A stretch of DNA of 64,000 nt from Verrucomicrobiota bacterium (GCA_049510295.1 JBEKZC010000012.1:5492-69491), one strand, 5' to 3'; counted from the first letter of the stretch, positions 32,691 to 54,800 are shown. A program made the numbers and translations. The notes: generated by a model not told the origin, from the sequence alone.

Positions 32691-33049
32691 TCAAAGGCGC
32701 TGGGTTTCTCCGGGGCTTGAGGTGCCGGGGCGGTCGCCTTTTCAACGCGCGCCGTCAGGTTCGATCGCGCGGCGGCGGGATCCTGCCCTTCGCATTCGGT
32801 GATTTGCATCGCCACCTCAATCGGCAGGCGCACGAGGCCGCGATCCTGGTTAATCCAGCCGGGATGGTTCAGCGCCTGGTTTTCGGCGGCGCGAATTTCG
32901 GCCAGGGCCTTGGCGCGCACGGCGGCGCGGTCGGCGTCAATGGCCGGGACCGACATGGACCATTTCACCTTCACCACGATCGCAGCAAACAAAAAGCACG
33001 CGATGAGGAAGCCGACGCCGGCGGGCCAGACGATGCGTTCGTTGTTCAT
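32687..33049 (-). CDS. small single-TM protein of the ACIII operon (120 aa)
   Basis: The N-terminal TM segment is WPAGVGFLIACFLFAAIVV. ATGA overlaps link it to both actF (upstream) and the CcoN-like gene (downstream). It may be an ActG-like accessory subunit (inference). Confidence 0.55.
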   Translation of the reverse strand: MNNERIVWPAGVGFLIACFLFAAIVVKVKWSMSVPAIDADRAAVRAKALAEIRAAENQALNHPGWINQDRGLVRLPIEVAMQITECEGQDPAAARSNLTARVEKATAPAPQAPEKPSAFE

Positions 33050-34296
33050 TGGCGACCTCCGGTGGTTGATGTCACGCCGGAAATCTCTTCACGCGCGACG
33101 TAACGGATTCCCATGGCTTCGAGCAGGCGCGGGTCCTTTTGCGGGAACGGTGCGTGGCGGTTAAAATTTTTCAGGAAAGCCCAACTGAGAAATCCCCCCA
33201 TGAACGCGAGACAACCGAGTTGCAGCCATATCCATTTGAACGGATAGCCGTTCGGATGTTGCGCCGGCAGGATGTTGAAGGACAAGTCCACAAAGTTCAT
33301 CGCCAGTGCCCACAGACAGACCGGCAGCATGATTTTGAAATCAGTTTTCGCCTTCACGGGCAGCAGCACGAAGAACGGCAGCAGGAAATGGCCGAAGATG
33401 AGGAGCAGGCCCATCCACCACCACGAGCCATGTTCGCGGATGAGATACCAGAAGGTTTCGCCGGGTGTGTTCGCATTCCAGATGACGAAGTATTGCGCGA
33501 ACTCGAGGTAAGCCTGGAAGATGGTGAACGCAAAGAACAGCAGGCCCAGGAAATAAAACTGGTTGTCGTGCAGCACGCGGTCGAGGATGCGCTGGCGTTG
33601 CAGGAGCACGGTGATGACATAGACCGCCGCCAGCGCCGCCCAGGCGCAACTGGCGAAAAAGTACACGCCGTAAATCGCCGAGAACCATTGGTATTGCACG
33701 GCCTGCATCCAGAGCACGCCGGAGAAGGTCAGTGTCAGCGCAAAGGCCACCATCCCCCACCCCGAATGGAAACGCATCCGCTGCGTACCAAGTGCACCGC
33801 TGGTTTCGTCCTGCTTGAGCGACCAGTAACGCAGCCGCGACGACAGCAGCCACCAGAGGCCGAAGAAAATCGCCGACGTGATGTAAAATCCGGGCATCGT
33901 GAACACCGGCCATTTCGCGCTCAACGAGCTGTTGGCATGCGGGTCGGCCATCGTCATCCACGAATAAATGTGTTTCGCGAAAAACGCGACTGGCAGAAAC
34001 AGAATCGCCAGCCAGGGAAACAACAGCGACGCGATATGCTCGCAAACGCGGCGTATGGCCACCGACCAGCCGGCGTCGCTCAAATGATGGACCATCACCA
34101 GGAACAGCGCCCCGAGGGCGAGGCTAAGGAAAAACATGAACGCCAGCAGCCACGAATAACCGAACTCCGCCGGATCTTTTACGGCGCCAATCGCCGACAA
34201 CACCGCGCCGACGACCATCAAGACGGCGGGCGCCTTCCGCCATCCGGACAAGTCCAGCGGCGGCGGCAAAGGTGTTATGTTGTTGGGCAAACTCAT
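33046..34296 (-). CDS. actF: alternative complex III subunit ActF (NrfD-like membrane subunit 2)
   Basis: A polytopic 416-aa membrane protein in the conserved position after actE. Confidence 0.8.
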   Translation of the reverse strand: MSLPNNITPLPPPLDLSGWRKAPAVLMVVGAVLSAIGAVKDPAEFGYSWLLAFMFFLSLALGALFLVMVHHLSDAGWSVAIRRVCEHIASLLFPWLAILFLPVAFFAKHIYSWMTMADPHANSSLSAKWPVFTMPGFYITSAIFFGLWWLLSSRLRYWSLKQDETSGALGTQRMRFHSGWGMVAFALTLTFSGVLWMQAVQYQWFSAIYGVYFFASCAWAALAAVYVITVLLQRQRILDRVLHDNQFYFLGLLFFAFTIFQAYLEFAQYFVIWNANTPGETFWYLIREHGSWWWMGLLLIFGHFLLPFFVLLPVKAKTDFKIMLPVCLWALAMNFVDLSFNILPAQHPNGYPFKWIWLQLGCLAFMGGFLSWAFLKNFNRHAPFPQKDPRLLEAMGIRYVAREEISGVTSTTGGRQ

Positions 34297-34302
34297 GTTT
34301 TT

Positions 34303-34402
34303 AAAGTAGGACAGGCGTCTCGCCTGTCTGCGAAGCGCACAAGCGCAAGCATTTATTCCTCGCTTCGCGAGGCTTGGGCAGGCGGGACGCTTGCCCTACT
34401 TT
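34303..34402. repeat. palindromic repeat family B (AAAGTAGGRCAGGCG...CGCCTGCCCTACTTT)
   Basis: The arms aaagtaggacaggcgtctcgcctgtc and gggcaggcgggacgcttgccctacttt flank a central gcgaagcg/cgcttcgc hairpin. It fills the actF-actE gap. A second copy lies at 37231-37327. Confidence 0.75.
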
Positions 34403-34419
34403 ATGGCAAATTCTGTTCT

Positions 34420-35076
34420 TCATTTTTTCAAGGCGGCCTGCTGGTCTGGCGGCAAGTCGTCCACCGAACCCAATTGGCTCAATTGCAACGCGCGCAGATA
34501 AGCGATGACCGCCCAGCGGTCGGCCACCGGCACCATCGGCCCATGCGCGCCCATCAAACCCTTGCCGAAAGTAATCGTGTTGAATATTTCGCCGTCGGCC
34601 ATTTCCACGATGCGCTTGTCCTGCAAATTGGCCACCGCCGGCATCACGCCAAGTTTTTTGCTGATGCCGTTGCCGTCGCCGAGCGCGCCATGACAGGGCG
34701 TGCAGTAAATATTGAAGCGCTCGCGTCCATGCTGGAGCAACGGACCGGTGACGGACAGCGGATTGGTCTCCACAAAATTTGTCGTGCCGGTGACGCGACC
34801 GGTGTTGACCGGCGCATCTTCAAAGGGCCAGACCTCGCCGCTGACGGTTTGCAGCAGCTGGCCGCGCGCAATCGTGCCGGGCGGCGGCAATTGCGAACTG
34901 AGTCCATTCGGGAAAAAGTCGTTGGGCTGTTGCGGGCGCAGTTTCAACTGCCGGTCCATGTCCGGGAAAACCTCGATGGGCGGCTGGCGCGACAACCGTC
35001 CCTGCCGCCCGGCGATGCCAACGCCCACGGCCACGCCCGTCAGCAAAATCAAAATGATGTATAAAAGTTGGCGCAT
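34420..35076 (-). CDS. actE: alternative complex III subunit ActE (monohaem cytochrome c)
   Basis: It has a single CTPCHG haem motif with a downstream Met, and an N-terminal hydrophobic anchor. Its start overlaps the actD stop by 1 nt (TGATG). Confidence 0.85.
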   Translation of the reverse strand: MRQLLYIILILLTGVAVGVGIAGRQGRLSRQPPIEVFPDMDRQLKLRPQQPNDFFPNGLSSQLPPPGTIARGQLLQTVSGEVWPFEDAPVNTGRVTGTTNFVETNPLSVTGPLLQHGRERFNIYCTPCHGALGDGNGISKKLGVMPAVANLQDKRIVEMADGEIFNTITFGKGLMGAHGPMVPVADRWAVIAYLRALQLSQLGSVDDLPPDQQAALKK

Positions 35077-35609
35077 CAGGCTTTCACCAGTTCGATGTGC
35101 GTGCCGCCGAGGGACTCCAGCAGCCTGCGGGTTTCGGTTTCGGAAAATTTCAGATCGTTCGCGCCAATCACGAGGAAAAACTTGTCGCGCGACGCCAGCG
35201 CGAAGCGTGCCTTCTGCAAAAGCGGATGATGCAAACGCGGGAGTCCGTTCAGGGCCAGCATCCCGACGAACGCGCCGACGGCGGCGCCCAGCACCATCAT
35301 GATGTAGGACGGCACGAAGGACATCGGCGGGCTGAACATCGGTTTGCCGCCGACGATCAGCGGATAATCGAACGCGTTGCTGAACCAGATCAAACCCATG
35401 GTCGCCACAAATGCGCCGCCGCCAAACAGGAACGCGAACCAGCCGACGAGCGAATTTTTGAAGCCGGCCACCTTGTCGAGGCCATGAATCGGAAACGGCG
35501 TGAACACCTCCCAGCGGCGATAACCCGCCGCGCGGATTTTTTCCGCCGCGTGCAGAATGGCCGCGGGTGAATCGAATTCCGCCATGAGGCCGTAATCTTT
35601 GTCGTTCAT
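35076..35609 (-). CDS. actD: alternative complex III subunit ActD (DUF3341)
   Basis: The N-terminal pattern MAEFDSPAAILHAAEKIRAAGYRRWEVFTPFPIHGL is typical of ActD/DUF3341 and is followed by two TM helices. Confidence 0.85.
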   Translation of the reverse strand: MNDKDYGLMAEFDSPAAILHAAEKIRAAGYRRWEVFTPFPIHGLDKVAGFKNSLVGWFAFLFGGGAFVATMGLIWFSNAFDYPLIVGGKPMFSPPMSFVPSYIMMVLGAAVGAFVGMLALNGLPRLHHPLLQKARFALASRDKFFLVIGANDLKFSETETRRLLESLGGTHIELVKA

Positions 35610-35651
35610 GAACGGCCTCCTTTCGCGATGGCGTAATCCGACATGGTTTTT

Positions 35652-35722
35652 GTTTGGTGTGCCGCCTTTAGGCGGTCCGGATGAAACACGACGAATTGCC
35701 GCCTAAAGGCGGGACACCGAAC
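35652..35722. repeat. palindromic repeat family C (GTTYGGTGTSCCGCCTTTAGGCGG inverted pair)
   Basis: The arms are gtttggtgtgccgcctttaggcgg and ccgcctaaaggcgggacaccgaac. It lies in the actD-actC gap. Confidence 0.7.
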
Positions 35723-35751
35723 GCGACTGGCCGGTTTTGACAAGAACAGTG

Positions 35752-37176
35752 TCAAGCTAGACCTCCTTTCGCGCCGCCCAAGGGATGGTGCGGGTCGGCC
35801 TGCGGCAGGGCGCCCTTGACCTCGGCGATGGCGACCAGCGACAGGAATTTTATGAACAGCAGATACATCGTGAAAAAGGCGCCGAGTGTGCCGAGATAGG
35901 TGCCGATGTCCACCCACGTCGGGAAATACACGCCCCAGTTCGCGGGCAGGAAATCCTGGTAGAGCGAACCGACGATGATGACGAAGCGTTCGAACCACAT
36001 CCCGATGTTGATGAGCACACCGAGGACGAAGACGAGTTTCAGGTTATGCCGGACGGTTTTGAACCAGAGCAACTGGGCGAGGCCCACATTGACCACGAGC
36101 ATGATCCAGCCGCCATACCAGTAGGTGTGACCGAACAACCGGTGGCCGAAAACCCAGCGTTCGTACGGATCGCCGCTGTACCAGGCGATGAAATATTCCA
36201 TCAGGTAAATATAGGCAATGACCAGGCTGCTGAGCAAAGTCAGCTTGCAGATGCGGTCCATGTGCCGGGGCGTGATAATTTCCTCGAGCTGGCACCACTT
36301 GCGCAGCGGGATGAGCAGCACCAGCACCATGCCGAAGCCGCAGTACACGGCGCCCACGACGAAATACAGCGGGAAAATCGTCGCATGCCAGCCCGCCAGT
36401 TGCGACGTGCAGAAATCCATACCGACGATGGAACTCACCGTGAACACCAGCAACGTGCACAAGCCGGACAAAACGACGTAGGCCTTTTCGTAATGGTGCC
36501 AGTGCCGTGCCGAGCCGACCCAGCCCATCGCCAGAAAACCGTAAATAAATTTCCGCACCCGCGTGGTCGCGCGGTCGCGCAGCACGGCGAGGTCGGGAAT
36601 CAATCCCAGGTACCAGAAGAGTATGGAAACCACCAGGTAGGTGTTGACGGCGAACACGTCCCACATCAACGGTGAACGAAACTGCGGCCAGAGGCCGTTC
36701 GAGTTTGGGATCGGGAACATGAACCAGGCAAACCACACGCGCCCGACGTGGATGGCCGGATACAGCCCCGCCATCATGACCGAGAACACCGTCATCGCTT
36801 CCGTTGCGCGGCCGATGGTGGTGCGCCAATGCTGCCGCGTCAGGAACAGCATCGCCGAAATCAACGTGCCGGCGTGCGCGACGCCGACCCACCACACGAA
36901 ATTGATGATGTCCCAGCCCCAGGCCACCGGTTGATTGTTGCCCCAGACGCCGACACCGGTGGAAACCTGGTAAATCAACATGACGGGTAATAATACCGTC
37001 GCTCCCAACACCGCCGGGCCGAACAGAACCCACCACCAAAGCGGTGTTTTCCCTTCGGCGAAGGCCGAGAGCTTGTCGGTCAGCCAGCCGGGGCCGCGGT
37101 TGTTCTCCACGACCGGCGCGCGCTGCAATTCCGCCGGCGGCGTGAAGGTTTTCAAGTTGGTCGCGGATTCAGCCAT
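35752..37176 (-). CDS. actC: alternative complex III subunit ActC (NrfD/PsrC-type quinol-interacting membrane subunit)
   Basis: A polytopic 474-aa NrfD-family protein in the conserved position after actB. Confidence 0.9.
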   Translation of the reverse strand: MAESATNLKTFTPPAELQRAPVVENNRGPGWLTDKLSAFAEGKTPLWWWVLFGPAVLGATVLLPVMLIYQVSTGVGVWGNNQPVAWGWDIINFVWWVGVAHAGTLISAMLFLTRQHWRTTIGRATEAMTVFSVMMAGLYPAIHVGRVWFAWFMFPIPNSNGLWPQFRSPLMWDVFAVNTYLVVSILFWYLGLIPDLAVLRDRATTRVRKFIYGFLAMGWVGSARHWHHYEKAYVVLSGLCTLLVFTVSSIVGMDFCTSQLAGWHATIFPLYFVVGAVYCGFGMVLVLLIPLRKWCQLEEIITPRHMDRICKLTLLSSLVIAYIYLMEYFIAWYSGDPYERWVFGHRLFGHTYWYGGWIMLVVNVGLAQLLWFKTVRHNLKLVFVLGVLINIGMWFERFVIIVGSLYQDFLPANWGVYFPTWVDIGTYLGTLGAFFTMYLLFIKFLSLVAIAEVKGALPQADPHHPLGGAKGGLA

Positions 37177-37230
37177 TTGTTATTTCATTTTTAACGCAAA
37201 GGCGCAAAGGCCCGAAGATGCATGAACCTC

Positions 37231-37327
37231 AGAGTAGGGCAGGCGTCTCGCCTGCCTAACGAGCGCGTAAGCGCGAACAATGTGTCGGCTTCGCCGCCGC
37301 GGGCAGGCGAGACGCCTGCCCTACTTT
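37231..37327. repeat. palindromic repeat family B, second copy
   Basis: The arms are agagtagggcaggcgtctcgcctgcc and gggcaggcgagacgcctgccctacttt. It lies in the actC-actB gap. Confidence 0.75.
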
Positions 37328-37345
37328 GAATCGTAAAGCTAGCCA

Positions 37346-40300
37346 TCAGCCCGCTCCTTTCTTTTCGGCCTGGAGTTCGCCGCCGCGGTTTTTGTATTCC
37401 TCAAAGCTGTAAGGCCATTTGCGGTAATCAGGCATGTTTGGGTTTTGATTGCGGATGCGCGCCAGATATGTCGTGCGCGGTTTCGTCAGCAAATCACCGA
37501 GCACCGAATAATTCCGTGTCTGTGCCTTGAGCCGCGAAACGTGGCTTTTCGGATCGCTGATGTCACCGAACGTAATCGCCTGTGCCGGGCACGCCTGCTG
37601 GCACGCCGTCTTTGGAATCGTGCCGGCGGCTTCCGTGAGCCGCACGTTGTCCGACGCGCCGGCCTTGACCTTCTGTGCAATCTTCGCCTGCTCGATGCGT
37701 TGCGTGCAGTAGGTGCATTTTTCCATCACGCCGCGCATGCGCACCGTCACGTCGGGATTCTTGACCATTTTGATCAAGTCCCATTCGTCCTCCTCGCGCA
37801 TGCCGCTGTCCGGATTTTTCCACCAGCTCAACAAATCCCATTTGCTGTCCGTCTTGTGCGTGAGTGGCGTGGGATAAAACGGTCCCTTGAGATCGGCCAG
37901 CGGACGTTTGTTGTAATCAAGATAATTGAACCGGCGGACCTTGTACGGACAGTTGTTCGAGCAATACCGCGTGCCGATGCAGCGGTTGTAAGCCATCACA
38001 TTCAAACCTTCCTGGTCGTGGACGGTGGCGTTGACCGGGCAGACGTTTTCGCACGGGGCGGCCTCGCACTGCTGGCAAAGCATCGGCTGGTTCACCGCCT
38101 GCACGTCGTCAATCCATTCGGCAAATTGCTGCTCGTCATCCTTCTGGAAGGCGTCCGACGGTTTTTTGAATATCGGATTGGCGGTGTAGTAGCGGTCAAT
38201 CCGCAGCCAGTGCATTTCTCGGCCGCGCAGCACCTGGTCCTTGCCAACGATGGGAATGTTGTTTTCGCTCTGGCAGGCAATCACGCACGTGCCGCAGCCG
38301 ACGCACGCGCTCAAATCCACCGTCATGCCCCACTGATGCAATGCGGTCTTCTTCGCCTCGTCCAGCGGGTTGGGATACAACGGCGCCACCACCGGTGGCT
38401 CGGTGCCGCGCATCTCAGTCGCAAAATCCGGGTCCTTGAAGAATTCCAGAAGGTTTGCCTCGCGCACCGCCGGCCGGCCTTCCATGGACCAGTGATTTTG
38501 TGTCGTGGCCAGCGGATATGTTTCACCGGTCTTGCGCACCGTCGCGCCGGTCTCGATGTATTGGCCGGTGAAAATCTTGCAGGCGTTGAAACCGACGCCG
38601 GTGCCGACGCGCCCTGCCCTTTCGCGTCCGTAACCGAGCGCAAGCCCGAGCGAATAATCCGCCATGCCCGGCTGCGTCCAGATGGGGCCCTTGACGCTGC
38701 GGCCGTTCAGAGTGATTTCGATGACGTCGCCGTTCTGCACACCAAGTTCGCTCGCCGTCTTGCGGCTGACAAGCACCGCGTTGTCCCAGGTCAGCTTGGT
38801 GACGGGGTCGGGCAGCTCCTGCAACCAGCCGTTGTTGGCATAACGTCCGTCGTCCATTTTCGCGTCGCGATGGAAAACGACTTCGAGGTTGTTCGCGGAA
38901 GGCGTGGGAACATTTTTAATGGAAGGCAAAGCTACGGCTCGGCTGTCTTCAAGGATCGGATTAAAAGTTTTGTTGGAACCTTCAAGATAACCGTCGAACA
39001 AAAACTTTTTCCATGCTGCTTCCGGGTTAATTTCATCCCAGACTCCAATAATTGTCTGACGAACAATTTCGTAAGGACTGGTCTGCGATTCACCCGCAAT
39101 GCGCGCAAGGAATTCCAGTTCCGTCAAGCCGCCGAACAGGGGTTGAATGAGCGGCTGGATCGGCACGAGCGTGCCGTCGCTGGTCGTGGCATCACCCCAC
39201 GATTCGAGATAATGCGCCAGTGGGAAATTCCAGTCTGATTTTTCTGCTGTTTCGTCTTCGTAATGGCCAAGCCGAACGACGGTTTCCGGTTTCTGCTTCG
39301 GCGACCAGTTCAAATTGTAAACCGGATTGCCGCCAAGAATGACCAGTGTGTCGGTTGCGCTTCTGTCGAAATTCTTCAAATCTGCGCCGGCAGTTTCCAT
39401 TGTCGGAAGCAAAGTGACTGTGTTGCCAATCGCACCGAGCGCCGAATTGAAGGCCCAAGCGAGCAAATGAACTTCCAACGGCTGGCGCTGACCAGCAACG
39501 ACCAAAACCTCGCCACGATGGGCAAGCAAGTCTTTCGCGCATCTCGCAATCCATCTCGCGAGCAAGGGCACCGGCTCCGAGAGTTGAGCGAAAATTTCAT
39601 CCGCAACTTTCGAAACCATGCTTCCCGGCACGCGCAAACGGTGGTCCGCATTTGCACCGGTAAGCGTGAACAGCGACTCCACGGCATAAAGCCGGCTCAT
39701 CCCCTCGCCCGGCCTCCGGCCCTCGGCAAATTGACGGATGTAATTATGCGGGTCCTCCTCGCCGCCGAGAAAATCGCAATCCAGCGACAGGATGACCTTC
39801 GCCTTGTCGAAATGGTAAACCGGACGCACCGGCTGGCCGAACGCCTGCGTTGCCGCGCGTTGATGGATGCCTGAATCAATCGCGTCGTAGGTGAACCACT
39901 GCGACTTCGGGAATTTGTCGGCGATGATTTTTTGCAGACGCGCACGCGATGGCGACGTGCTGCTTTCGGCGAGGAAGGCCAGGCCTTCGCCCTGGTTCGC
40001 CGCAAATTTCTTCGACAGCTCGTCAAGGAAACCCAGCGCTTCGTCGCGTGAAACCGTTTTGCCTTCCTTCGTGAACCGTTTGGCGCGGTCGGGATCGTAA
40101 AGATCCAGGATGGAAGCCTGCGCGTAGCGGTCGGTGCCGCCGTTGCTGCCGGGGAATCTGGCATTGCCCTCCAGTTTGATGGGCCGGCCTTCACAGGACT
40201 TGGCGACGAGCGGGACCGCACCGGTGCGCGTCGGCATGGCCGTCGCATAATATTCCGGTTCGCCGTAAACGTAATTTTCCGGCTGCTGGCCGAACGGCTC

Positions 40301-40546
40301 CAGTTTTTCCACCGGCCGGCGGCAGCCCGCGCCCATCACACCCAGGCCCGCGAGCGCGAACGACGCAGACATGATTTTGACGAAATGCCGGCGGGAAACG
40401 CCGTCCTCGAATTCGCTCGCACCCTGCGGAAACTCGCGATGCAGCCAGTCCTTGAACTCCGGCGTGTCGGCCAGTTCATCCAGGCTGCGCCAGTAACGGC
40501 GGCCAGTCAGGGCAGGCTGGGCGGGAGTTGGAGGATTTGGTTTCAT
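37346..40546 (-). CDS. actB: alternative complex III subunit ActB (molybdopterin-oxidoreductase-like domain fused to a 4Fe-4S domain)
   Basis: The twin-arginine signal is [20 protein letters not shown] large MopB-like N-terminal half is followed by a C-terminal ferredoxin-like half with several Cys clusters ([41 protein letters not shown]). The length is 1066 aa. Confidence 0.92.
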
Positions 40547-40550
40547 TCAG

Positions 40551-40742
40551 TTAAACCACGAAATACACGAAATACACGAAAAGAAATAAAAACGGGAACA
40601 ACGGCGTATTCGCTATTGCCGCCGGAGCGCGGCTGTATGCGAAGCATCAGCCGCAGCACGTCTGGCAATTTCAACCTGCTGCGGCTGGGTCTGCGACCAC
40701 AGCCGCGCTCCGAATTCGTGTCTTTTGTGTATTTCGTGGTTT
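40551..40742. repeat. composite element: repeat family D arms (ACGAAATACACGAAA / TTCGTGT..TGTATTTCGTGG) enclosing a short family A MITE (40624-40711)
   Basis: The outer left arm is ttaaaccacgaaatacacgaaatacacgaaaag and the outer right arm is ttcgtgtcttttgtgtatttcgtggttt. The inner element ggagcgcggctgt...acagccgcgctcc has the same termini as the copies at 14942-15084 and 62991-63133. It lies in the actB-actA gap. Confidence 0.7.
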
Positions 40743-40748
40743 TCATCT

Positions 40749-41417
40749 TCATCGGTGGCAGGCCGAGCAGCTTTGCAGCGATTCGATTTTCCAGTCGTGG
40801 ACGAAGGTGGTACCGTTGGTCCTCTGCATCCGCGCCGCCACGTCCGCATTCGTGCTCCATTGCCAGCCCAAATCCGTGACCTTGTCCACCGGCCGGACAA
40901 ATGCCGCTGGCTGGCGATGGCAATCGAGGCAAAAACTCATGCTGAACGATTTGGCATGACGGACCTCGTCCATTTGATCAACGCGTCCGTGGCACTCGAC
41001 ACAACTGATGCCGCGCGCGACGTGAACCGAGTGGTTGAAATAAACATAATCGGGTACGATGTGGATTTGCACCCACGGGATGGGGACATTGTTGGTGACG
41101 CTGGCGCGCACGAGGGCGAGGCGCGGGTCGTCCTTGAGCACTTGATTGTGGCAATTCATGCACGTGGACGCGGACGGGATGCTGGAGAACCACGATTTGT
41201 CCACCGTGTTGTGGCAGTAGCGGCAATCAACGCCCAGTTGCCCCGTGTGGATCGCGTGCGAAAATGGCACCGGCTGGACCGGCTGGTAACCGGCCCGCGT
41301 GTATTTGGGCGTGCAATAATAAGTGACACCCGCTGTCACCACACCGCCGACCAGCGCCAGCACGACGCCAATCTGCAGCGGCAACCAGTTTGTCCACCTC
41401 GGAAAAATCGCTGGCAT
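40749..41417 (-). CDS. actA: alternative complex III subunit ActA (pentahaem cytochrome c)
   Basis: It has an N-terminal TM anchor and five CxxCH motifs (CRYCH, CMNCH, CVECH, CLDCH, CSACH). Confidence 0.9.
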   Translation of the reverse strand: MPAIFPRWTNWLPLQIGVVLALVGGVVTAGVTYYCTPKYTRAGYQPVQPVPFSHAIHTGQLGVDCRYCHNTVDKSWFSSIPSASTCMNCHNQVLKDDPRLALVRASVTNNVPIPWVQIHIVPDYVYFNHSVHVARGISCVECHGRVDQMDEVRHAKSFSMSFCLDCHRQPAAFVRPVDKVTDLGWQWSTNADVAARMQRTNGTTFVHDWKIESLQSCSACHR

Positions 41418-42940: not shown

Positions 42941-43121
42941 GCGGACGCTGTCTCAAAAACCGATCTCCGGTCAAGACTGATAGACAAAATCGAGGATGGC
43001 TCTGGTTTCCAAATCCTGGATTGTGCGGACGCTGTCTCAAAAACCGGCTTCCCGGTCAAGACTGATACACAAAATCAAGGATGGCTCCGGTCCTCCCAGC
43101 CCCGGACTGTGCGGACGCTGG
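42941..43121. repeat. tandem direct repeat: two full units of 84 and 86 bp plus the start of a third
   Basis: The units begin gcggacgctgtctcaaaaaccg at 42941 and 43025, and the third start is gcggacgctgg at 43111. The units share ...ccggtcaagactgata.acaaaatc.aggatggctc.ggt. Confidence 0.8.
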
Positions 43122-43282
43122 ACACCGCTACGGCGACGGCCTGCCCCGCGCGGCAGTCAGCAACCACGAAAGAACTACACGAAATCTGTGCCGCACTTGT
43201 CGCGCCGAAATTGGATGAAGGCGGAAAGAGGCACAGAAGGCGCAAAAACCGTCGACGCGAATTCCGCGAATTCACACAAATT

Positions 43283-46200
43283 TTAGCCCAACACGTTGTC
43301 CCGCCACCGGCGCACGCTCATCACGTCGAACCGCTCGCCCTCAAAGACGATTTGCTTCACAGGTTTCTTGCCGTTGTTGCTTTCGCGATTCAGCCAGTCG
43401 CGAATTTCCATCCAGCGGACTTCGCCCTCGGAATTCCGGATCACCAGCAGCACCGGGAACGCCTGTGCCATCCAGTAGCGGGCGTGGCGCTCGTCCTTGA
43501 TCGTGAAGATCTCCGCGCCGTCGCCCTTGCGCTCGCGCAGGTAGGAATCGCCCGACTTGAGTTGCAGGTAGAGCTTTCGTCCGGTAGCCTCGCCGGCATC
43601 GCTCTTGAACTCGATCTCCATATCAATACCTTGGTCGCTCACGATTAACTCCCGGCTGATCTGCCCGGCCAGCGCGACCGTGGAAATCACCTCGCCCACC
43701 AGCGCACGCTCCTTGCTCTGGCTGTCGAGCACGATGGCGGATTGTTCCTCCAGTTCGCGGACCCGTTGTTTCATTTCTGGGCTGGCAAACAGTTCCTCCA
43801 TTTGATCCCAGAGCGGAATGCGCTTCTCGCAACTCACACAGAGGATGTCCTTCTTGCCTTCCTCCAACTTCTTCATTGCCACTTCCCGGTTCCCGACCGG
43901 CGTGCCGCAGTGCGGGCAGACATAGTGCCGCAGCCGCACGACATCCTGCCCCTTTTGCAGCAGGTGCTCGTGGACATACCGGCTGAAGATGATCTTTTCC
44001 TCCACCGGGATGGCCGGATCGAAATACACCTCCATCTCGCCCGCGCCCTCGGCCCGGCGCGTCAGCTTCACACCGAGTAGTCTGCCGGTCAGAGTCTTGA
44101 AGTCGGCGGCGTAGCGCCAGAGTTGGTCCTGCTGGAATGGCTTCGTGTGATGCAGCCGCACCACCAGCGTGGCGTAAATGTCGTCGAGGAACCCATTGAA
44201 TCGGTAGCTCACCAGCACGGCCGGGTGACCCACCAACTCGGGACGCTCGCGGCGGTAGAAGCTGGGGAATATCAAAAGCGGCCCCTTGTCCGTGTGCTCG
44301 CGCAGGCAAAGGCCGCGCTCGACCAGCGTCTGGTGCATGGCCAGCAGCACAAACCGCTCCTCCTCGGCCCCCAGGCGCTTCATCGAGGATTGATACGTGA
44401 GGTCGCCCTTCAGCACCCGTTCCTCCGGAAGGCACCCACGTTCGAGTTTGTCTTCGCGCATGGTTTGGATCACCGCTTGTGCGTAGGCGTTGATGCGCTC
44501 CGGCTGGAGCAGCACCCAACTGCCGAACGCCAGCTCCCACACCGCTCCGGGACCGGCCAGCAGGCCAACCACCGCCTTCAACTCCTCGTCCTTGAACTGC
44601 CCATCCTTTCCGGCCAAACGCAGGCGCAAGGCATCGCGCAGTTCGTTCAATCGCATCAGCACCCGGTCCTCATCCCTGAGCCGGACGATCTCTTCCTTGA
44701 GCCGCTTGAAGAGAAGCGGCGAGGAGCGCCACGGAATATTCTCCCACTGGATGCCGCGAAGAATGGCTTGTTTGAGTTCTTCGCAACGTTCCCCGGTCTT
44801 TGCGCTTGTTTCCAGAAAGCAGGTAAAACCACGTTCCTTCGCGAACGTCTCGACTTGGCTCCGGCTGACGCGCAGGCCGCCGGCATCCACGCGCCCGGCG
44901 ACCAACAGCTTGGCGAACTCCTTGCGCGAGGCGCGGGTGAGATCGCGATCCCACTGGCCCAGTGTCTCGAAGAGGTCTTCCTTCTGGCCGTCGAAGACCA
45001 GCACCGCCAACGCGGTTTCGTCCATGTAAAGCTGGTGGATCAACCGCTGGTCCGCCTGGCCGCCGAAATCCCAAAGCCAGATTTCCCGCTCGACGCCTTC
45101 GCCGGAAGACACGGGCAGCTTCCACTGCGTCGCCCACGCGCCGACCGTCGAGCCTTCGCTCGGTTTCCATTCACCAGTTGCCAACCGATACGAAAGTCCC
45201 GTTTTGCCTGCGCTGGTTTCGCCGACAAGAAGGACTTTGGCATTCGTGTATTGGACCTGATCAGGCACAAGTTTCCTGGTCATCCTAGTTGAAGAAGTCT
45301 GCAATTTCGGCGCGACGGTTTTCGGTACTCGTGCCTCGGTGACGAATTCCGACAAATCCCATACCCGGATGCCGCCTTTCTTGTCGCCTGAGAAAGCACG
45401 GCGTCCATCGACGCTCCACGCCACGGTCGTGACGTGGGCAGTGTGACCTTCGAGCACGCGCAGGCAGCGCCCCGTCTCCACGTCCCATAGCCGAAGCGTA
45501 TGATCGTCGGAGCCGGAGATAACGCGGTGTGCATCCGCGCTTAAGGCTATACACCAAATGCGGCCACTGTGACCTTCGAGGACGCGTAAGCAGCGCCCCG
45601 TCTCCATGTCCCACAATCGAAGGGTTTTGTCGGTGGCTCCGGACATCGCGCGGCGTTCATCGGCACTCAACGCTACGCCCCAAATGGGATTTTTGTGGCC
45701 TTCGAGCGTCAAGAGACATTGGCCCGTCTCCACGTCAAAGAGCTGAACAACATTCGCGGGATCGCCTGAACCAGCGATGACGCGGCGTTGGCCGCCACCC
45801 CACGCTAGGCTAAGAGCCCAGCTATTACTGTCGAGGACGCGCAAGCAACGCCCCGTCTCAAGGTCCCATAGCCGTAGCGTCTTATCGTGCGAGCTGGAAA
45901 GGGCCCTGCGTTGATCGGGGCTCCAAGCCACGCGCAGGACGTCAGTGGTGTGACCTTTGAGAACGCGTAGGCAATGGCCAGTCCCCACGTCCCACAGCCG
46001 GACGGTTTTGTCATTGGCACCAGAGAGGGCGCGGCGTTGATCGGCACTCCATGCCACGCCGTTGACATCACCGCTGTGGCCTCTGAGCACACGCAGGCAG
46101 CGCCCCGTTTCCACATCCCACAGCCGCATGGTGTTGTCATCGGCTCCGGTGAGAGCGCGCTTTCCATCCGGACTGAACGCGTAGGCATTGACGCTCGCGC

Positions 46201-46684
46201 CCTTGCAGTCGAGTTGGATTGCCTTTTCCACAACGTGTTCACCAGCGGCCTCTGCGCCCGTCGCCTTCGGCTCCGCTGGCGGTCGGCAAGCTTCGAGGAG
46301 CTTCGCATACTCCTGCTCGCGGTTCGCCGGCAGCCAGTTAATGTAAAGGAACTGGGTCAGGGAGCCTTTGATGGGGGCGTCGTCGAGCCGCAGGGGAACA
46401 AATCGACGATCTTTGTTCAGCGGATCGCGAAACCGGAACGTATGGCTCTCCAACTGCGCCCAGTCCGAGCCGAATGCATTCGCCGACATGCAGAGCACCA
46501 GCACGCGCGAGTACTCCAGCCCTTCCTCAATCTTCGCCGGGATGCTGTCGCCGGGCTTGATCTCCCATTCATCAAACCACACCTTCAACCCATCCTTCCG
46601 CAACCGCTCCGCGAGCGGGCGTATCACCGCCTTGTCCTTCGAACTGTGGCTTAGGAAGACATCAAATTTGAAATCATTTGCCAT
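43283..46684 (-). CDS. TIR - 7x WD40 - Roc GTPase - COR - zinc ribbon - DUF4365-like (PD-(D/E)xK-type) multidomain protein (1133 aa)
   Basis: I chose the start at 46684 (MANDFKFDVFLSHSS). The TIR domain has FDVFLSHSSKDK...SDWAQLE with the conserved Glu. Seven WD40 blades carry (T/V)(L/V)RLWD(V/L/M)ETGRCLRVLEGH. The Roc G-motifs are GETSAGKTG, DFGGQ, AGRVD and ETSAK. A COR-like region follows, then CPHC...CVSC, and a C-terminal ERALVGEVIS...DQGIDMEIEF...KLYLQLKSG segment typical of DUF4365. Confidence 0.85.
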   Translation of the reverse strand: MANDFKFDVFLSHSSKDKAVIRPLAERLRKDGLKVWFDEWEIKPGDSIPAKIEEGLEYSRVLVLCMSANAFGSDWAQLESHTFRFRDPLNKDRRFVPLRLDDAPIKGSLTQFLYINWLPANREQEYAKLLEACRPPAEPKATGAEAAGEHVVEKAIQLDCKGASVNAYAFSPDGKRALTGADDNTMRLWDVETGRCLRVLRGHSGDVNGVAWSADQRRALSGANDKTVRLWDVGTGHCLRVLKGHTTDVLRVAWSPDQRRALSSSHDKTLRLWDLETGRCLRVLDSNSWALSLAWGGGQRRVIAGSGDPANVVQLFDVETGQCLLTLEGHKNPIWGVALSADERRAMSGATDKTLRLWDMETGRCLRVLEGHSGRIWCIALSADAHRVISGSDDHTLRLWDVETGRCLRVLEGHTAHVTTVAWSVDGRRAFSGDKKGGIRVWDLSEFVTEARVPKTVAPKLQTSSTRMTRKLVPDQVQYTNAKVLLVGETSAGKTGLSYRLATGEWKPSEGSTVGAWATQWKLPVSSGEGVEREIWLWDFGGQADQRLIHQLYMDETALAVLVFDGQKEDLFETLGQWDRDLTRASRKEFAKLLVAGRVDAGGLRVSRSQVETFAKERGFTCFLETSAKTGERCEELKQAILRGIQWENIPWRSSPLLFKRLKEEIVRLRDEDRVLMRLNELRDALRLRLAGKDGQFKDEELKAVVGLLAGPGAVWELAFGSWVLLQPERINAYAQAVIQTMREDKLERGCLPEERVLKGDLTYQSSMKRLGAEEERFVLLAMHQTLVERGLCLREHTDKGPLLIFPSFYRRERPELVGHPAVLVSYRFNGFLDDIYATLVVRLHHTKPFQQDQLWRYAADFKTLTGRLLGVKLTRRAEGAGEMEVYFDPAIPVEEKIIFSRYVHEHLLQKGQDVVRLRHYVCPHCGTPVGNREVAMKKLEEGKKDILCVSCEKRIPLWDQMEELFASPEMKQRVRELEEQSAIVLDSQSKERALVGEVISTVALAGQISRELIVSDQGIDMEIEFKSDAGEATGRKLYLQLKSGDSYLRERKGDGAEIFTIKDERHARYWMAQAFPVLLVIRNSEGEVRWMEIRDWLNRESNNGKKPVKQIVFEGERFDVMSVRRWRDNVLG

Positions 46685-46764
46685 ACCCACTTCTGCTGAA
46701 CATGGCGAGACTGACGCATTTGCCGGGCAAAAGCAAAAATAAAGTTGGGGGCCGTAAGCCGCCC

Positions 46765-46808
46765 TCACCCGGCCTTCAGCCACCCTCTCCCGTCGGACGG
46801 GAGAGGGG
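46765..46808. repeat. repeat family H hairpin upstream of the TIR gene
   Basis: The sequence gccctcacccggccttcagccaccctctcccgtcggacgggagagggg includes the palindrome ccctctccc gtcgga cgggagaggg. Confidence 0.55.
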
Positions 46809-47052
46809 ATTTATTTGTGGGACAATTTACCCAGGGTGGCGTTCGCTTTGCGTCCTTACCTTGGGCTATTATCTGTCAGCCTTGCAGGCTTTTTTAATTT
46901 GTGTGAATTTGTGAAATTCGTGTCGAGTCGTGATTTTCCCCGGCGGCGCGCAGCGGAGTGCACGCCCTACCTGAAAGCGAAGGTAATTCGAGGACGAGGA
47001 CGAGAACGAGCCGTCTCCGTTACACTTCGCCGCGCCAAGGGACGAGGAGGAT

Positions 47053-51589: not shown

Positions 51590-51953
51590 GTGATTCGCAG
51601 TGGCTCAAGGTTTGGTTGAGTGCAACAAAAAGCGCCGATGATGACAAGCGCGGTTTTTACGATGTCAGGACCGGGCCGAAGGCCGGCGTTCAAAACCCGA
51701 TTTTCCCACAATTTTGACGCCCCTTTTCCGAAAATTACGAGCAGGAATTTTGTGCATTAAATCACCTGCATTCTGTAAAAATGGCCTTATGCGGGCTGGA
51801 CACGCTGGAAATTGTTTCTAATTCTAATCCCAATTCCGCGAACTGGATGTCTGTAATTGCAACCGGCGCGTCGCCGGGATTCAGGAACAGTCGCGGAAGC
51901 GGAAAATCACAATCAAGTCTTCAATCGTTAATCAGACCGGAGATTCGAATCTT
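51590..51953. promoter_or_regulatory. divergent promoter region between iorA (minus) and the porin-ABC operon (plus)
   Basis: This is a 364-bp AT-richer non-coding gap between divergently oriented operons. It contains a direct repeat TGCATT-N9-TGCATT. No consensus promoter was confidently identified. Confidence 0.3.
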
Positions 51954-53522
51954 ATGTTGAACACCAAACTGAAACTGACGTTGGGTCTTGCCGTGCTGGC
52001 CGCGGCGACCGCCCTGGCTCAAACTCAAACCAACGCGCCTGCCGGTGCACCTTCTGCCCCGCCAGCCGGGGCGTCGGCTGCCACACCGGTCGCGGCCACT
52101 CCGGCGCCGCCGCCGCCGACCACCTTCGACCAGTGGGCGAAAGAGGTCAAGAACCCGGTGGACTGGTTGAGTTGGGGGGGTGATATCCGGGTGCGCAATG
52201 AGTACTTCAACAATGCGTTGAGCCTGGGTTCGGGTCCCAGCAGCGGGCCGTTTGGCCCCGTGCATGAACAGGACTATTTCCGTTTTCGTGGCCGGATTGG
52301 GGCCAGCTTTTTCCCGGCAGTATATACGGGCATTACAAACGACCTGAGTTTGAACGTCCGTCTGGCCGCTGAACCGCGGGAGTTCTTGAAAAACTCGACC
52401 ATGGACACATACTTCGAAAAATCGGGCATGCAGTGGCGCTACGGGATTATTGACACCCTCAACGTGCAATGGAAGAAACCGCTGGACCTGCCTGCCACCA
52501 TGACGGTTGGCCGCCAGGATATTAACCTGGGTGACAACTGGCTGTTTGGAGACGGCACGCCCGAGGACGGGTCCTTCACATCTTTCCTCGATTCCGCCCG
52601 CGTCACCGTCGATCTGAAAGATCAGCACACCACCATTGATGCCATCGGCATTGTCCAGTACGGGCGGCCCGACGCCTGGCTGCCCACCATAGGCCCCTCC
52701 ACCACACAGGGTGAAAACCCGAACGCGTATCTCCTGACCGACCAAAACGAAAAGGGCGCGGTTCTGTATATCGCCAACAAGAGCCTGCCGGCAGCCAACC
52801 TGGACGGCTTCTTTATCTACAAACACGACTCGGCCATCAACAACCATCCATACTCGATATTCTCTGACAACGCGGACATCTACACGTTTGGCGGCCGCGT
52901 TTCGGGTTTGGTGGAGGAGCATTTTCAGTATTCGGCGGAGGGGGCGTATCAGTTCGGGAGGAAACAATATCAGTATAATCTTGTGCCACCCCCGTTGGAC
53001 GCAAACTTCCACAACCTCAACGCTTTTGGAGTGAAAAGCAAAATCAGCTACCTGTTCAAGGACAAAATGAACGACCAGTTGAGTATGGTTTTTGAGTTTC
53101 TTTCCGGGGATAATCCAAAAACGGGAAACGATGAAATGTTTGACATATTGTGGGGCCGGTACCCGCAGTGGAGCGAGATGTACAACATTTACAGCTACGT
53201 TAACGAGACGCGCGTAGGGCAAACGGCCAATCTCATACGATTCGGCCCAACTTGGAGTGTGGACCCGATCAAGGACATGAATTTCAGCCTTACCTATAAC
53301 GCGTTGTTTGCGGATCAGGATGTGCCCACTCAAGCGACTGTACCTAGTGATTTCACGGGGACGGGGGACTTTCGCGGCCATTACCTTCAGGCGGTCCTCA
53401 AATACAAATTCACCAAGCATCTGAGCGGCCACCTTTGGAGCGAATTCCTCTTTCCGGGCGACTTCTACGCCAGCCGGAGCATGATGGATTTCCTGCGTGC
53501 GGAAGTTATGTACACGTTCTAG
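51954..53522 (+). CDS. outer-membrane beta-barrel protein (porin-like, alginate-export-type)
   Basis: The signal peptide is MLNTKLKLTLGLAVLAAATALAQ. An Ala/Pro-rich linker and alternating-hydrophobicity strands follow, and the C-terminus ends ...AEVMYTF. It is the first gene of the ABC-transporter operon. Confidence 0.7.
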   Translation: MLNTKLKLTLGLAVLAAATALAQTQTNAPAGAPSAPPAGASAATPVAATPAPPPPTTFDQWAKEVKNPVDWLSWGGDIRVRNEYFNNALSLGSGPSSGPFGPVHEQDYFRFRGRIGASFFPAVYTGITNDLSLNVRLAAEPREFLKNSTMDTYFEKSGMQWRYGIIDTLNVQWKKPLDLPATMTVGRQDINLGDNWLFGDGTPEDGSFTSFLDSARVTVDLKDQHTTIDAIGIVQYGRPDAWLPTIGPSTTQGENPNAYLLTDQNEKGAVLYIANKSLPAANLDGFFIYKHDSAINNHPYSIFSDNADIYTFGGRVSGLVEEHFQYSAEGAYQFGRKQYQYNLVPPPLDANFHNLNAFGVKSKISYLFKDKMNDQLSMVFEFLSGDNPKTGNDEMFDILWGRYPQWSEMYNIYSYVNETRVGQTANLIRFGPTWSVDPIKDMNFSLTYNALFADQDVPTQATVPSDFTGTGDFRGHYLQAVLKYKFTKHLSGHLWSEFLFPGDFYASRSMMDFLRAEVMYTF

Positions 53523-53555
53523 CCCGCCCTGACATCCATCGGGCAAAAACAGCTT

Positions 53556-54719
53556 ATGAAAAAGAATCTGCTGATTATGGCGGGCGCCTGCTGGCTCGCC
53601 GCCCAATTGTCCGCCCCAACCGGTTCCGCGGCGGACGAAACCAAACCCATCAAGATCGGCGCCATCTTTTCCGTCACCGGCCCGGCATCCTTCCTCGGTG
53701 CGCCGGAGGCGAAGACGGCACAAATGCTGGTGGACAAGATCAACGCCTCGGGCGGCGTGCTTGGCCAGAAGCTCGAATTGATCATCAAGGACAGCAGCGG
53801 CAGCCCGGAGAAGGCGGTCTCGTTTGCCAAGCAGTTGATCGAAGAAGACAAGGTGCTGGCCATCATCGGTCCGTCCACCAGCGGCGAGACCATGCAAATC
53901 AAAAAGCTCTGTGAAGAGAACCAGATGATCCTCGTCTCCTGCGCCGCGGCGGATGCCATCGTCAATCCCCTGGCCAAATATGTCTTCAAGACCCCGCAAA
54001 AGGACAGCCAGGCGGCGACCTGGATTTACCGCACGATGAAGGAAAAGGGCATCACCAAGATTGCCGTGCTGACCGGCAATGACGGCTTCGGCGCCTCCGG
54101 CAAAAAACAGCTTGAAGAACTGGCCAAAACGGAAGGCATCGAAATTGTCTGCAATGAAGTCTATGACAAACAGGCGACCGACCTGACGGACATCCTGACG
54201 AAGGTCAAGGGGACGCCGGGGGTCCAGGCCGTGGTGAACTGGTCCATCGTTCCCGCCCAATCCATTGTGGCGAAGAACATGAAGCAACTCGGCATGACCA
54301 TTCCGCTGTTCCAAAGCCACGGGTTCGGCAACCGCAAGTATGTCGAGCAGGCGGGCGTGGCGGCGGAAGGCATCCTGTTCCCGGCAGGCCGGCTGCTGGT
54401 GGTGGAGGAACTGCCCGACAGCCATCCGCAAAAGAAGCTGTTGGCCACCTACAAGAAGGATTACGAAGCCGCCTACAAGGAGGATGTGAGCACCTTTGGC
54501 GGGCATGCCTACGATGCGATTTTGATTGTGACCGAGGCGCTCAAGAAGGCCGGCACAACCGATCGCGCGAAGGTGCGCGACGCCATCGAGGGCCTGCACG
54601 GCCTGGTGGGCACGGCGGGCATTTACAATTTTTCCGCCACCGACCACACGGGGCTGGACCTGAATGCGTTTGAAATGCTGACGGTCAAGGACGGCAAGTT
54701 CACGATTTATAAAAAATAA
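53556..54719 (+). CDS. Liv-type ABC transporter substrate-binding protein
   Basis: After a signal peptide comes the type-I periplasmic binding pattern IKIGAIFSVTGPASFLGAPE...AIIGPSTSG. It lies upstream of the livHMGF-like genes. Confidence 0.9.
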   Translation: MKKNLLIMAGACWLAAQLSAPTGSAADETKPIKIGAIFSVTGPASFLGAPEAKTAQMLVDKINASGGVLGQKLELIIKDSSGSPEKAVSFAKQLIEEDKVLAIIGPSTSGETMQIKKLCEENQMILVSCAAADAIVNPLAKYVFKTPQKDSQAATWIYRTMKEKGITKIAVLTGNDGFGASGKKQLEELAKTEGIEIVCNEVYDKQATDLTDILTKVKGTPGVQAVVNWSIVPAQSIVAKNMKQLGMTIPLFQSHGFGNRKYVEQAGVAAEGILFPAGRLLVVEELPDSHPQKKLLATYKKDYEAAYKEDVSTFGGHAYDAILIVTEALKKAGTTDRAKVRDAIEGLHGLVGTAGIYNFSATDHTGLDLNAFEMLTVKDGKFTIYKK

Positions 54720-54800
54720 CCGGATTGGTTTGGTTGTAGAAGGTTCCTCCAAGGCCCCGGCGGGAAACCGACCGGGGCCTTTTGTCCGGAAGGCCTGACG

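Follow-up and report, generated by a model that had tools for sequence, protein, structure and literature searches.

A Roco GTPase fused to a variable WD40 propeller and two putative effectors: a candidate single-gene conflict sensor from a Verrucomicrobiota bacterium

Can a Roco GTPase serve as the switch of an NLR-like immune receptor in bacteria? The question is raised by one gene in a 64,000-nucleotide (nt) stretch of DNA from a Verrucomicrobiota bacterium (GCA_049510295.1, JBEKZC010000012.1:5492-69491; this whole stretch is the window, in which all positions are counted unless a locus is named), for which an earlier reading made from the DNA alone (the original prediction) had proposed a six-module protein with NLR-style architecture. 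The comparisons described below suggest that the gene probably encodes a stand-alone, single-gene conflict sensor of NLR-like design, in which a Roco GTPase is the switch and two oligomerisation-dependent effectors are the output. Its function in defence is one that we infer, and the conflict concerned is most likely abortive infection directed against phages or mobile elements.

The gene occupies 43283-46684 on the minus strand, the original prediction having named no strand, as one unbroken open reading frame (ORF) of 1133 amino acids (aa) plus stop, with an ATG at 46684 and the stop codon at 43283-43285. A longer form starting from a GTG at 46783 is possible in principle, and the ATG is preferred because the N-termini of homologues (MxDDFxYDVFLSHS) start at the equivalent position; the nucleotides 5' of the ATG are kept in relatives that lack the gene, and this stretch is therefore a non-coding flank. 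An identical protein is encoded on 19 metagenome contigs, with the same context every time. The domain architecture, TIR-WD40-Roc-COR-zinc ribbon-DREN (DREN being the nuclease domain DUF4365), is nearly certain: the Pfam models TIR_2, WD40, Ras/Roc and DUF4365 each match above their own curated cut-offs, and all six modules that the original prediction had placed in the single ORF (a TIR domain with an NADase-type catalytic glutamate, seven WD40 blades, a Ras-like Roc domain followed by COR, a CPHC...CVSC zinc ribbon and a C-terminal DUF4365 nuclease-like module) are borne out by Pfam, predicted structure or cysteine conservation. The motifs that it quoted (DWAQLE with E79, GETSAGKTG, DFGGQ, ETSAK and CPHC...CVSC) are likewise present and conserved in relatives. 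Predicted structures were taken from a full-length AlphaFold 2 model (mean predicted local distance difference test, pLDDT, 81.5; predicted template modelling score, pTM, 0.48) and from a sub-model of aa 470-1000 (pLDDT 82.8, pTM 0.78), and motif conservation was counted in representatives clustered at 50% identity and reaching down to ~32% identity over a query spanning COR and the zinc ribbon.

The GTPase is a Ras-like G domain of the Roc type (aa 479-646; 44747-45250, minus strand), which matches the Pfam Ras model over aa 483-645 (E 2e-21, 80 bits) and the Roc model PF08477 with E 1e-18 and 68 bits against a cut-off of 27. Its motifs comprise G1 GETSAGKT, the switch-I threonine T513, G3 DFGGQ, a G4-like GRVD and G5 TSAK. 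Amongst 95 relatives the P-loop lysine is kept in 93, the switch-I threonine in 90, the DxxGQ residues in 94-95, R598 and D600 of the G4-like motif in 89 and 91, and the TSA of G5 in 93-94; the less conserved positions are Gly597 of the G4-like motif and the last lysine of TSAK (62/95 each). With the aspartate of GRVD kept and the G1, G3 and G5 motifs intact, the domain has the features of the Roc-type G domain of ROCO proteins. Compared by sequence, this G domain lies closer to Rab GTPases.

The presence of a COR domain behind the G domain, which the original prediction had also asserted, depends on the method by which it is sought. At the level of sequence the claim found no backing: aa 640-1000 gave no match to the Pfam COR models with the threshold relaxed to E<=10, and a profile built from 20 family sequences (aa 647-915) recovered no Roco protein amongst the PDB sequences, only spurious zinc-finger matches. 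At the level of predicted fold it held up well. Foldseek searches with the full-length model were dominated by WD40 proteins and were uninformative on the other regions, and for this reason aa 470-1000 were modelled separately. Every one of the top 29 PDB matches of this sub-model is a Roco protein, with an alignment of 342-601 columns that covers both Roc and COR, and they include LRRK1 (8e05, E 4.5e-19), the Roco protein of C. tepidum (6hlu, E 6e-19; 3dpu, E 2e-17), many entries of LRRK2, and Roco2 of M. barkeri (4wnr). The isolated COR domain of C. tepidum (3dpt) matches as well (E 9e-10), and the first plain Rab GTPases come in at rank 30, with ~168 columns. Because its best structural matches are Roco proteins over Roc and COR together, with the isolated COR domain amongst them, the protein is a Roco protein by predicted fold, whose COR is too divergent for current sequence models. 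In the sub-model the COR-like region (aa 647-915; 43940-44746, minus strand) is composed of two winged-helix-like units followed by an alpha/beta domain.

Behind COR lies a Cys4 zinc ribbon (aa 916-968; 43781-43939, minus strand) with weak Pfam zinc-ribbon matches, whose cysteines (C923, C926, C949 and C952) are kept in 110-116 of 116 divergent relatives. A long helix in the AlphaFold secondary structure (aa 969-1005; 43670-43780, minus strand) then links the ribbon to the nuclease domain. No Pfam or PADLOC model of a STAND-class ATPase (NACHT, NB-ARC or AP-ATPase) matches the protein; its NTPase is Ras-like, in keeping with the proposal that Roc-COR stands here in place of NACHT or NB-ARC.

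Both ends of the protein carry putative effectors. The N-terminal TIR domain (aa 6-130; 46295-46669, minus strand) matches TIR_2 over aa 9-130 (E 1.6e-26), and its closest solved relative is the NAD+ hydrolase AbTir (E 6e-15), with which DWAQLE aligns at DWTNYE, the glutamate of which we take to be the catalytic residue of AbTir. The corresponding Glu79 is kept in 51/57 divergent relatives. By fold and catalytic glutamate the domain belongs with the TIR NADases, enzymes that need oligomerisation, and it would be a putative NADase. The C-terminal domain (aa 1006-1133; 43286-43669, minus strand) matches Pfam DUF4365 over aa 1007-1130 (E 1.6e-21, 77-81 bits), and the solved DUF4365 proteins 9qbq and 9qbp align with its GID...EIE...QLK stretch. 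DUF4365 is the DREN domain, the collateral DNase/RNase of SPARDA, which in NbaSPARDA stays an inactive monomer until the assembly of filaments brings it into tetramers (PMC12205087), and Q62/K64 of the QxK motif are the active-site residues mutated in TmuRE (PMC10810196). Amongst 90 relatives of the protein studied here, D1021 is kept in 85, E1023 in 78, E1025 in 83, Q1041 in 75 and K1043 in 70 (with arginine in a further 9), as expected of a predicted PD-(D/E)xK-type nuclease domain with the D...ExE...QxK pattern and an intact QxK. Since DREN needs tetramerisation and TIR NADases need oligomerisation, both ends of the protein bear effector domains of kinds that are switched on by assembly.

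Between the TIR domain and the switch stands the putative ligand sensor, a WD40 propeller (aa 154-446; 45347-46225, minus strand) for which Pfam reports six significant repeats and the AlphaFold model, with pLDDT >90 in this region, has seven blades (aa 154-443). The DNA is periodic at 126 nt across the propeller, and the blades are very regular units of 42 aa. When 238 regular blades were pooled, the framework of the unit was almost invariant and unit positions 2, 23, 24, 26 and 42 had an entropy of 2.9-3.9 bits. The same five positions stand out when each blade is compared with the same blade of other orthologues (mean 3.09 bits versus 0.99 at the other 37 positions; Mann-Whitney p 1e-16), entropies that were obtained from the re-aligned propellers of 47 seven-blade orthologues from several phyla. 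Mean pairwise identity amongst these 47 orthologues is 84% in Roc, 84% in COR, 77% in TIR, 77% in DREN and 61% in WD40. By the standard structural rule for WD40 proteins, the five variable positions (the residue before the conserved aspartate and the start of strand a) are presumably top-face ligand contacts. A variable receptor face mounted on a frozen switch is the pattern that would be expected of an immune or non-self receptor. The DNA repeats are only ~75-77% identical to one another, so that recent concerted evolution is not evident.

Taken together, these parts suggest how such a sensor might operate. The top face of the WD40 propeller, which varies from orthologue to orthologue, would bind a ligand derived from the invader, probably a protein; binding would lift autoinhibition and alter the nucleotide and oligomeric state of Roc-COR; the rearrangement would gather the N-terminal TIR domains and the C-terminal DREN domains of several protomers; and the assembled effectors would degrade NAD+ and cut nucleic acids indiscriminately, stopping the infected cell. 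In this scheme we infer the trigger, the direction of the GTP switch, the oligomerisation, both enzyme activities and the defence phenotype, and the details of triggering and of assembly driven by the GTP cycle are uncertain. The NLR-like logic that had been proposed for the protein gains support from several sides: the sensor face is hypervariable, the switch is conserved and the effectors are swapped in relatives, and, as described below, the gene has no conserved partner, is spread patchily over many phyla and is present or absent at a hotspot.

The family to which the protein belongs is large and widely dispersed. In a word-indexed search, full-length proteins at 70-79% identity numbered more than 100, with annotations that do not go beyond 'TIR domain-containing protein' or 'small GTP-binding protein', and an exhaustive HMMER search with the COR-zinc-ribbon region (aa 647-1000) returned 1875 clusters at 50% identity with E<=1e-3, 443 of them with E<=1e-30. 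When one genome per GTDB species was scanned, at least 271 loci came to light amongst 185,579 representatives, and 80 of these loci were listed and analysed. These 80 loci fall into more than 10 phyla or major lineages and are 61-85% identical over Roc, COR and the zinc ribbon; they include many Acidobacteriota together with Thermoanaerobaculia, Zixibacteria, Nitrospira, Verrucomicrobiota, Planctomycetota, Armatimonadota, Binatia, Glassbacteria, Bacteroidota, Deferribacteres, Cyanobacteria, and Alpha-, Beta- and Deltaproteobacteria. A distribution so scattered, in proteins so similar from one phylum to the next, suggests that the gene has repeatedly been transferred horizontally and is under strong purifying selection. 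The family is mostly present once per genome, and the 80 listed loci include one genome with two copies, a complete Thermoanaerobaculaceae metagenome-assembled genome (MAG; OY970330.1, loci L019 and L043) in which they lie at ~1.65 Mb and ~4.24 Mb.

The nature of the propeller and the distribution of the family also bear on whether phages and mobile elements are the opponents at all. Near-identical 42-aa WD40 repeats with few hypervariable surface positions are the signature of the HNWD NLRs of Podospora, and the fungal HNWD and HET-E proteins are eukaryotic NLRs with a NACHT ATPase that act in allorecognition. The propeller described here has the same regular 42-aa repeats, with a conserved framework and few hypervariable surface positions. 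By analogy with these fungal WD40 NLRs, which govern allorecognition rather than antiviral defence, the same molecular logic could serve another kind of conflict, for example self/non-self recognition between bacteria, as in kin discrimination or the programmed death of aggregated cells, or a reaction to injected effectors. Related systems have been tied to multicellular or social bacteria (PMC8195603); the family was not found on viral contigs in IMG/VR, and it has no tight link to phage-defence islands. Nevertheless, many of the carriers are MAGs of uncultured soil Acidobacteriota without evidence of social behaviour, the gene is mostly single-copy whereas fungal allorecognition NLRs form polymorphic multigene families, and the bacterial systems in which TIR and DREN effectors have been characterised up to now act against phages and plasmids, which makes recognition of kin or of injected effectors an unlikely role. 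An anti-phage or anti-mobile-element sensor is thus retained as the preferred reading.

The relatives also indicate which parts of the protein are exchangeable. Amongst 149 of the 150 best-scoring representatives, the sequences examined, the architecture TIR-(WD40)n-Roc-COR-zinc ribbon-DREN is dominant, and its variants include proteins with 14 blades, proteins in which TIR directly precedes Roc with no propeller between them, and proteins with up to five tandem copies of DREN. Some relatives have C-terminal extensions with P-loop motifs (GKST/GKTS-type); for one homologue (P0018), Pfam entries of the AAA_15/AAA_21/AAA_23 type are on record, and the others were read by eye as ABC-like or STAND-like. 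On plasmids the search turned up only distant, effector-swapped relatives, in Nostocales (33% identity; L153 3011-7342, L154 2999-8194 and L155 2579-6028), in which the WD40-Roc-COR-zinc ribbon core is kept and DREN has been replaced: the C-terminal slot holds TIR in Calothrix, a calcineurin-like phosphoesterase with a CHAT protease in Nostoc sp. C057, and phosphoesterase, CHAT and NACHT in N. flagelliforme. The last of these relatives has both kinds of NTPase, Roco GTPase and STAND ATPase, on a single chain. Replacement of the C-terminal domain in distant relatives implies an exchangeable effector slot and argues that DREN is an effector rather than a sensor.

This last point matters for a different assignment of the parts, in which the zinc ribbon and DUF4365 would form an Mrr-like sensor of foreign or modified nucleic acid, TIR would be the only effector, and the WD40 propeller would be a scaffold or regulator. 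Binding of nucleic acids is common amongst PD-(D/E)xK domains and zinc ribbons, the presence in some relatives of up to five tandem copies of DUF4365, or of copies whose active sites are degenerate, suits binding or scaffolding better than catalysis, and variants lacking TIR are hard to separate from truncated fragments in metagenomic data. Against such an arrangement, the DREN slot is taken by clear effectors (TIR, or phosphoesterase with CHAT protease) in the distant relatives, the D, E and QxK residues are kept in most members, and hypervariability is found on the WD40 face while DREN is 77% identical between orthologues. A nucleic-acid sensor at the C-terminus is accordingly improbable, and a WD40 sensor with effectors at both ends of the protein remains the favoured arrangement.

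The position of the gene in its own lineage was examined by comparing the site in related genomes, with the downstream DUF4394-like gene as anchor. Sixty related loci from metagenomes were obtained in this way, with identities of 46-88% that fall below 63% in just two cases, and the Roco gene was found at the same site in none of the 60. In one of them (L095) the site is empty: the flank with the thioesterase is joined directly to the DUF4394 flank, with window positions 46935 to 46684 contiguous with 43131 to 41716 in blastn alignments. The extra segment of the window relative to this empty site (43132-46683) begins no more than 1-2 nt from the start codon and comprises the gene together with ~150 nt downstream of it. 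The region upstream (46685-46935), which contains a weak promoter-like site, is common to the empty-site relative and to relatives with other cargo, and in the latter the cargo sits behind this same conserved sequence with its start codon at the same position. The cargo is varied. It includes a RelE-like toxin with a helix-turn-helix (HTH) protein and an ImmA/IrrE-type peptidase with an XRE regulator (L093; motifs read by eye), a MqsA-like HTH protein (L151), a RlaP nucleotidyltransferase (L100) and, at L101 (1750-4844), an unannotated 270-aa protein with RNALCH (RxxxxH, HEPN-like) that overlaps a 761-aa AAA_16-type ATPase. The L101 pair, for which PADLOC gives only a weak PDC-M34B match (E 7e-5), may be a two-gene defence system; as a separate observation, this cargo has only its first six codons (MATDFK) in common. 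Behind the same upstream sequence, L100 and L151 retain TIR stubs of 45-53 codons (MANDFKYDVFLSHSSKDK...), from which it appears that a TIR gene once present at the site was lost or overwritten in these lineages. Judged from these comparisons, this slot, bounded by the 4HBT thioesterase gene on one side and the DUF4394-like gene on the other, is a flexible hotspot of an acidobacterial lineage, with cargo enriched in, although not limited to, toxin-antitoxin and defence-like genes.

Beyond this site, the gene does not travel with partners. No conserved operon partner was found in the 80 loci, where no neighbour family occurs in more than five and those that recur come from syntenic close relatives; a few loci have conjugation genes or PIN/DUF433/DUF5615 modules nearby. 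The gene is therefore a stand-alone unit, as had been anticipated from its isolated position. Its neighbours in the window are housekeeping genes: an alternative complex III (ACIII)-like Fe-S protein, cytochrome c7, NrfD, COX1, the 4HBT thioesterase, enzymes resembling phenylacetate-CoA ligase and indolepyruvate oxidoreductase, an ABC transporter and RNase R. A Roco protein with a housekeeping or regulatory role in signalling (for example in stress or development), and with a TIR domain used for interaction or signal production instead of cell death, would fit such surroundings here (an ACIII-like/cytochrome cluster and aromatic-acid catabolism) and in other genomes, the very high conservation of Roc, COR and DREN, and the placement of the closest solved TIR domains in the AbTir/TcpB group, which makes cyclic ADP-ribose (cADPR) isomers that are possible signals; it is nonetheless hardly probable given the patchy spread over species representatives (at least 271 of 185,579), the 0/60 occurrence in close relatives at the site, the hypervariable sensor face, the swapping of the effector slot for nuclease, protease or phosphoesterase domains, and the lack of a dedicated signal-receptor domain in the protein or its neighbours.

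How, then, does the candidate conflict sensor relate to systems already described? The original prediction knew of no characterised defence system with this composition; the concept, for its part, has a precedent. Prokaryotic conflict systems centred on an AP-GTPase (Roc) plus COR, and regarded as analogues of NLRs, have been predicted before (Kaur, Burroughs, Iyer and Aravind, eLife 2021; PMC8195603), with LRR, AP-GTPase and COR joined to at least 24 alternative C-terminal domains, TIR included. The source data for Figure 6 of that study list members of the present family as 'TIR+BetaPropeller+AP-GTPase' (for example NIM12342.1, NIM12946.1 and HCS91914.1), the first of these a 1000-aa 'DUF4365 domain-containing protein' from Aminicenantes, as well as effector-swapped relatives given as 'BetaPropeller+AP-GTPase+TIR' (PMC8195603). 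With a GTPase (plus COR) fused to a repeat sensor and variable effectors, and with its family in those source data, the protein belongs to the AP-GTPase conflict systems, sharing with them the switch, the repeat sensor, the variable effectors (TIR amongst them) and the interpretation as an NLR analogue. It differs in having a WD40 sensor, an N-terminal TIR and a C-terminal zinc ribbon with DREN, where the text of the earlier study describes LRR sensors and C-terminal effectors; COR and DUF4365 are not annotated in its architecture strings for the family, and the hypervariable blade positions, the conservation across phyla and the hotspot context are not described in that work, which is entirely computational. 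The protein is thus a well-delimited variant of a computationally predicted class, not a categorically new system.

Resemblances to other systems are confined to particular parts. In the solved Roco proteins (C. tepidum Roco, 3dpu, 6hlu and 8r4b; M. barkeri Roco2, 4wnr; human LRRK1 and LRRK2), Roc, COR-A and COR-B superpose on the predicted model with E 4.5e-19 to 6e-11; sequence identity is 14-20%, and in place of an LRR or kinase the protein has TIR, WD40, a zinc ribbon and a nuclease. With Avs, bNACHT and the TIR-NLR of PADLOC it would share, by analogy, a single-gene organisation in which a repeat sensor and an NTPase switch control an oligomerisation-activated effector of TIR or nuclease type; these proteins have a STAND ATPase, whereas the NTPase here is a Ras-like GTPase of the TRAFAC class, and the match to the PADLOC TIR-NLR model does not extend beyond the TIR domain. 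SPARDA has the same DUF4365/DREN domain with a QxK active-site motif, but joins it to Argonaute and APAZ with a guide RNA as sensor, whereas here DREN is fused to a Roco protein; neither pAgo nor APAZ was found amongst the neighbours, and matches to the PADLOC Aga_REase models are limited to the nuclease part (aa 986-1103). AbTir and the ThsB proteins of Thoeris share the TIR_2 domain with its glutamate in a DWxxxE context, and several ThsB models match at the domain level; in contrast to the TIR NADases, the TIR here is one domain of a receptor-like protein of 1133 aa, and no ThsA-like signal receptor is encoded nearby, nor any conserved neighbour, which places the protein outside Thoeris. 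Since the defining parts of STAND/NLR proteins, SPARDA and Thoeris were looked for and are absent, the protein is a member of none of them; by analogy, it plausibly works like an NLR without being one.

Several observations weigh against a role in defence of the kind proposed here. No experimental study of a bacterial Roco protein, or of this family, in defence was found in the literature searched. A PADLOC run, from which a named system might have emerged, produced only domain-level matches: nothing in PADLOC-DB 2023 matches over the full length, and the best matches are fragments, PDC-S66 on aa 5-82 and HEAT-ARM_XIII on the WD40 propeller. The association of homologues with classical defence islands, a survey of which had in effect been put forward as a check, is weak. 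Six other annotated genomes show different and mostly housekeeping neighbours each time and no classical defence island (some of these loci have toxin-antitoxin pairs, an IS21 helper or a Y1 transposase nearby), and amongst the 148 nearest neighbours only a few match PADLOC models (DpdF, type IV restriction enzymes, PbeA and others). The hotspot slot also accommodates cargo unrelated to defence, namely an aldo-keto reductase (identified by eye), a two-component system and a transglutaminase-like protein. Identity of 70-85% across phyla outside the WD40 face is unusually high for an immune gene, and the DREN motifs are degenerate in ~15-20% of distant relatives. With respect to the mechanism, the inter-domain geometry of the full-length model is unreliable (pTM 0.48), and two reports describe the solved C. 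tepidum Roco protein as becoming monomeric on GTP binding, so that oligomerisation of the effectors driven by Roc-COR is uncertain (PMC11052575, PMC5714945).

More tentatively, the protein may turn out to be the first tractable bacterial immune receptor with a Roco (LRRK2-type) switch, in which the WD40 face senses a phage protein, Roc-COR licenses assembly, and TIR and DREN fire from opposite ends; we hold this fuller version with limited confidence. To our knowledge, every NLR-like receptor characterised experimentally, whether bacterial or eukaryotic, uses a STAND ATPase. Were the proposal correct, NLR-type immunity could run on GTPases in place of STAND ATPases, an immune switch would be the ancestor or a parallel of the Roc-COR switch found in LRRK2 and DAPK, and the protein would provide a bacterial model of how Roc-COR couples ligand sensing to output, with a bearing on the biology of LRRK2. 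A role in defence would also establish a new class of defence system and a model for the control of two death effectors by one receptor. The Roco-GTPase equivalent of an NLR has so far only been predicted, and the value of the present case is that the prediction becomes testable: as a compact single gene from an abundant family, with a conserved switch and a diversifying sensor face, it is a good candidate for a first experiment. Should the defence role prove false, what remains is a Roco protein that is well defined, conserved to an unusual degree and mobile by horizontal transfer.

Some minor features of the surrounding DNA deserve mention. A 31-nt imperfect inverted repeat (43252-43282 and 46896-46926; 27/31 complementary) encloses the gene, with one arm ending 1 nt before the stop codon and the other lying 212 nt upstream of the ATG, and its 14-nt core (AATTTGTGTGAATT) occurs at only these two sites in the 64-kb window. 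Its interpretation as transposon ends was rejected, as the upstream arm lies in the flank that is present at the empty site, no comparable repeats occur in three other genomes, and no target-site duplication is visible; pairing of the 5' and 3' ends of the mRNA, or a recombination scar, are possibilities. Downstream of the gene, at 42941-43120, lies an 85-bp tandem repeat (2.1 copies, 85% matches), which folds no better than shuffled sequence (z -0.69) and is part of the conserved flank in relatives. The description of the gene as standing between repeat elements is literally accurate, given this tandem repeat and the hairpins, whereas a mobile element carrying the gene is not what these repeats represent, since they belong to the conserved flank. 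Upstream, on the plus strand at 46830-46891, there is a match to the Acido-Lenti-1 small RNA below the Rfam threshold (33 bits versus 37, E 8e-5) that ends at a terminator-like hairpin and T-run (46878-46900); in six related loci no such match was obtained. Farther away in the window, a 943-aa ORF (51921-54752, minus strand) without a Pfam match at E<=1e-3 lies between the indolepyruvate-oxidoreductase-like gene and the ABC transporter cluster. On the other side, the minus-strand genes at 31152-41417 form an ordinary respiratory cluster, in keeping with an acidobacterial host, that resembles alternative complex III with an oxidase and is made up of a 1066-aa Fe-S protein, a multihaem cytochrome c7-like protein, an NrfD-like membrane protein and COX1.

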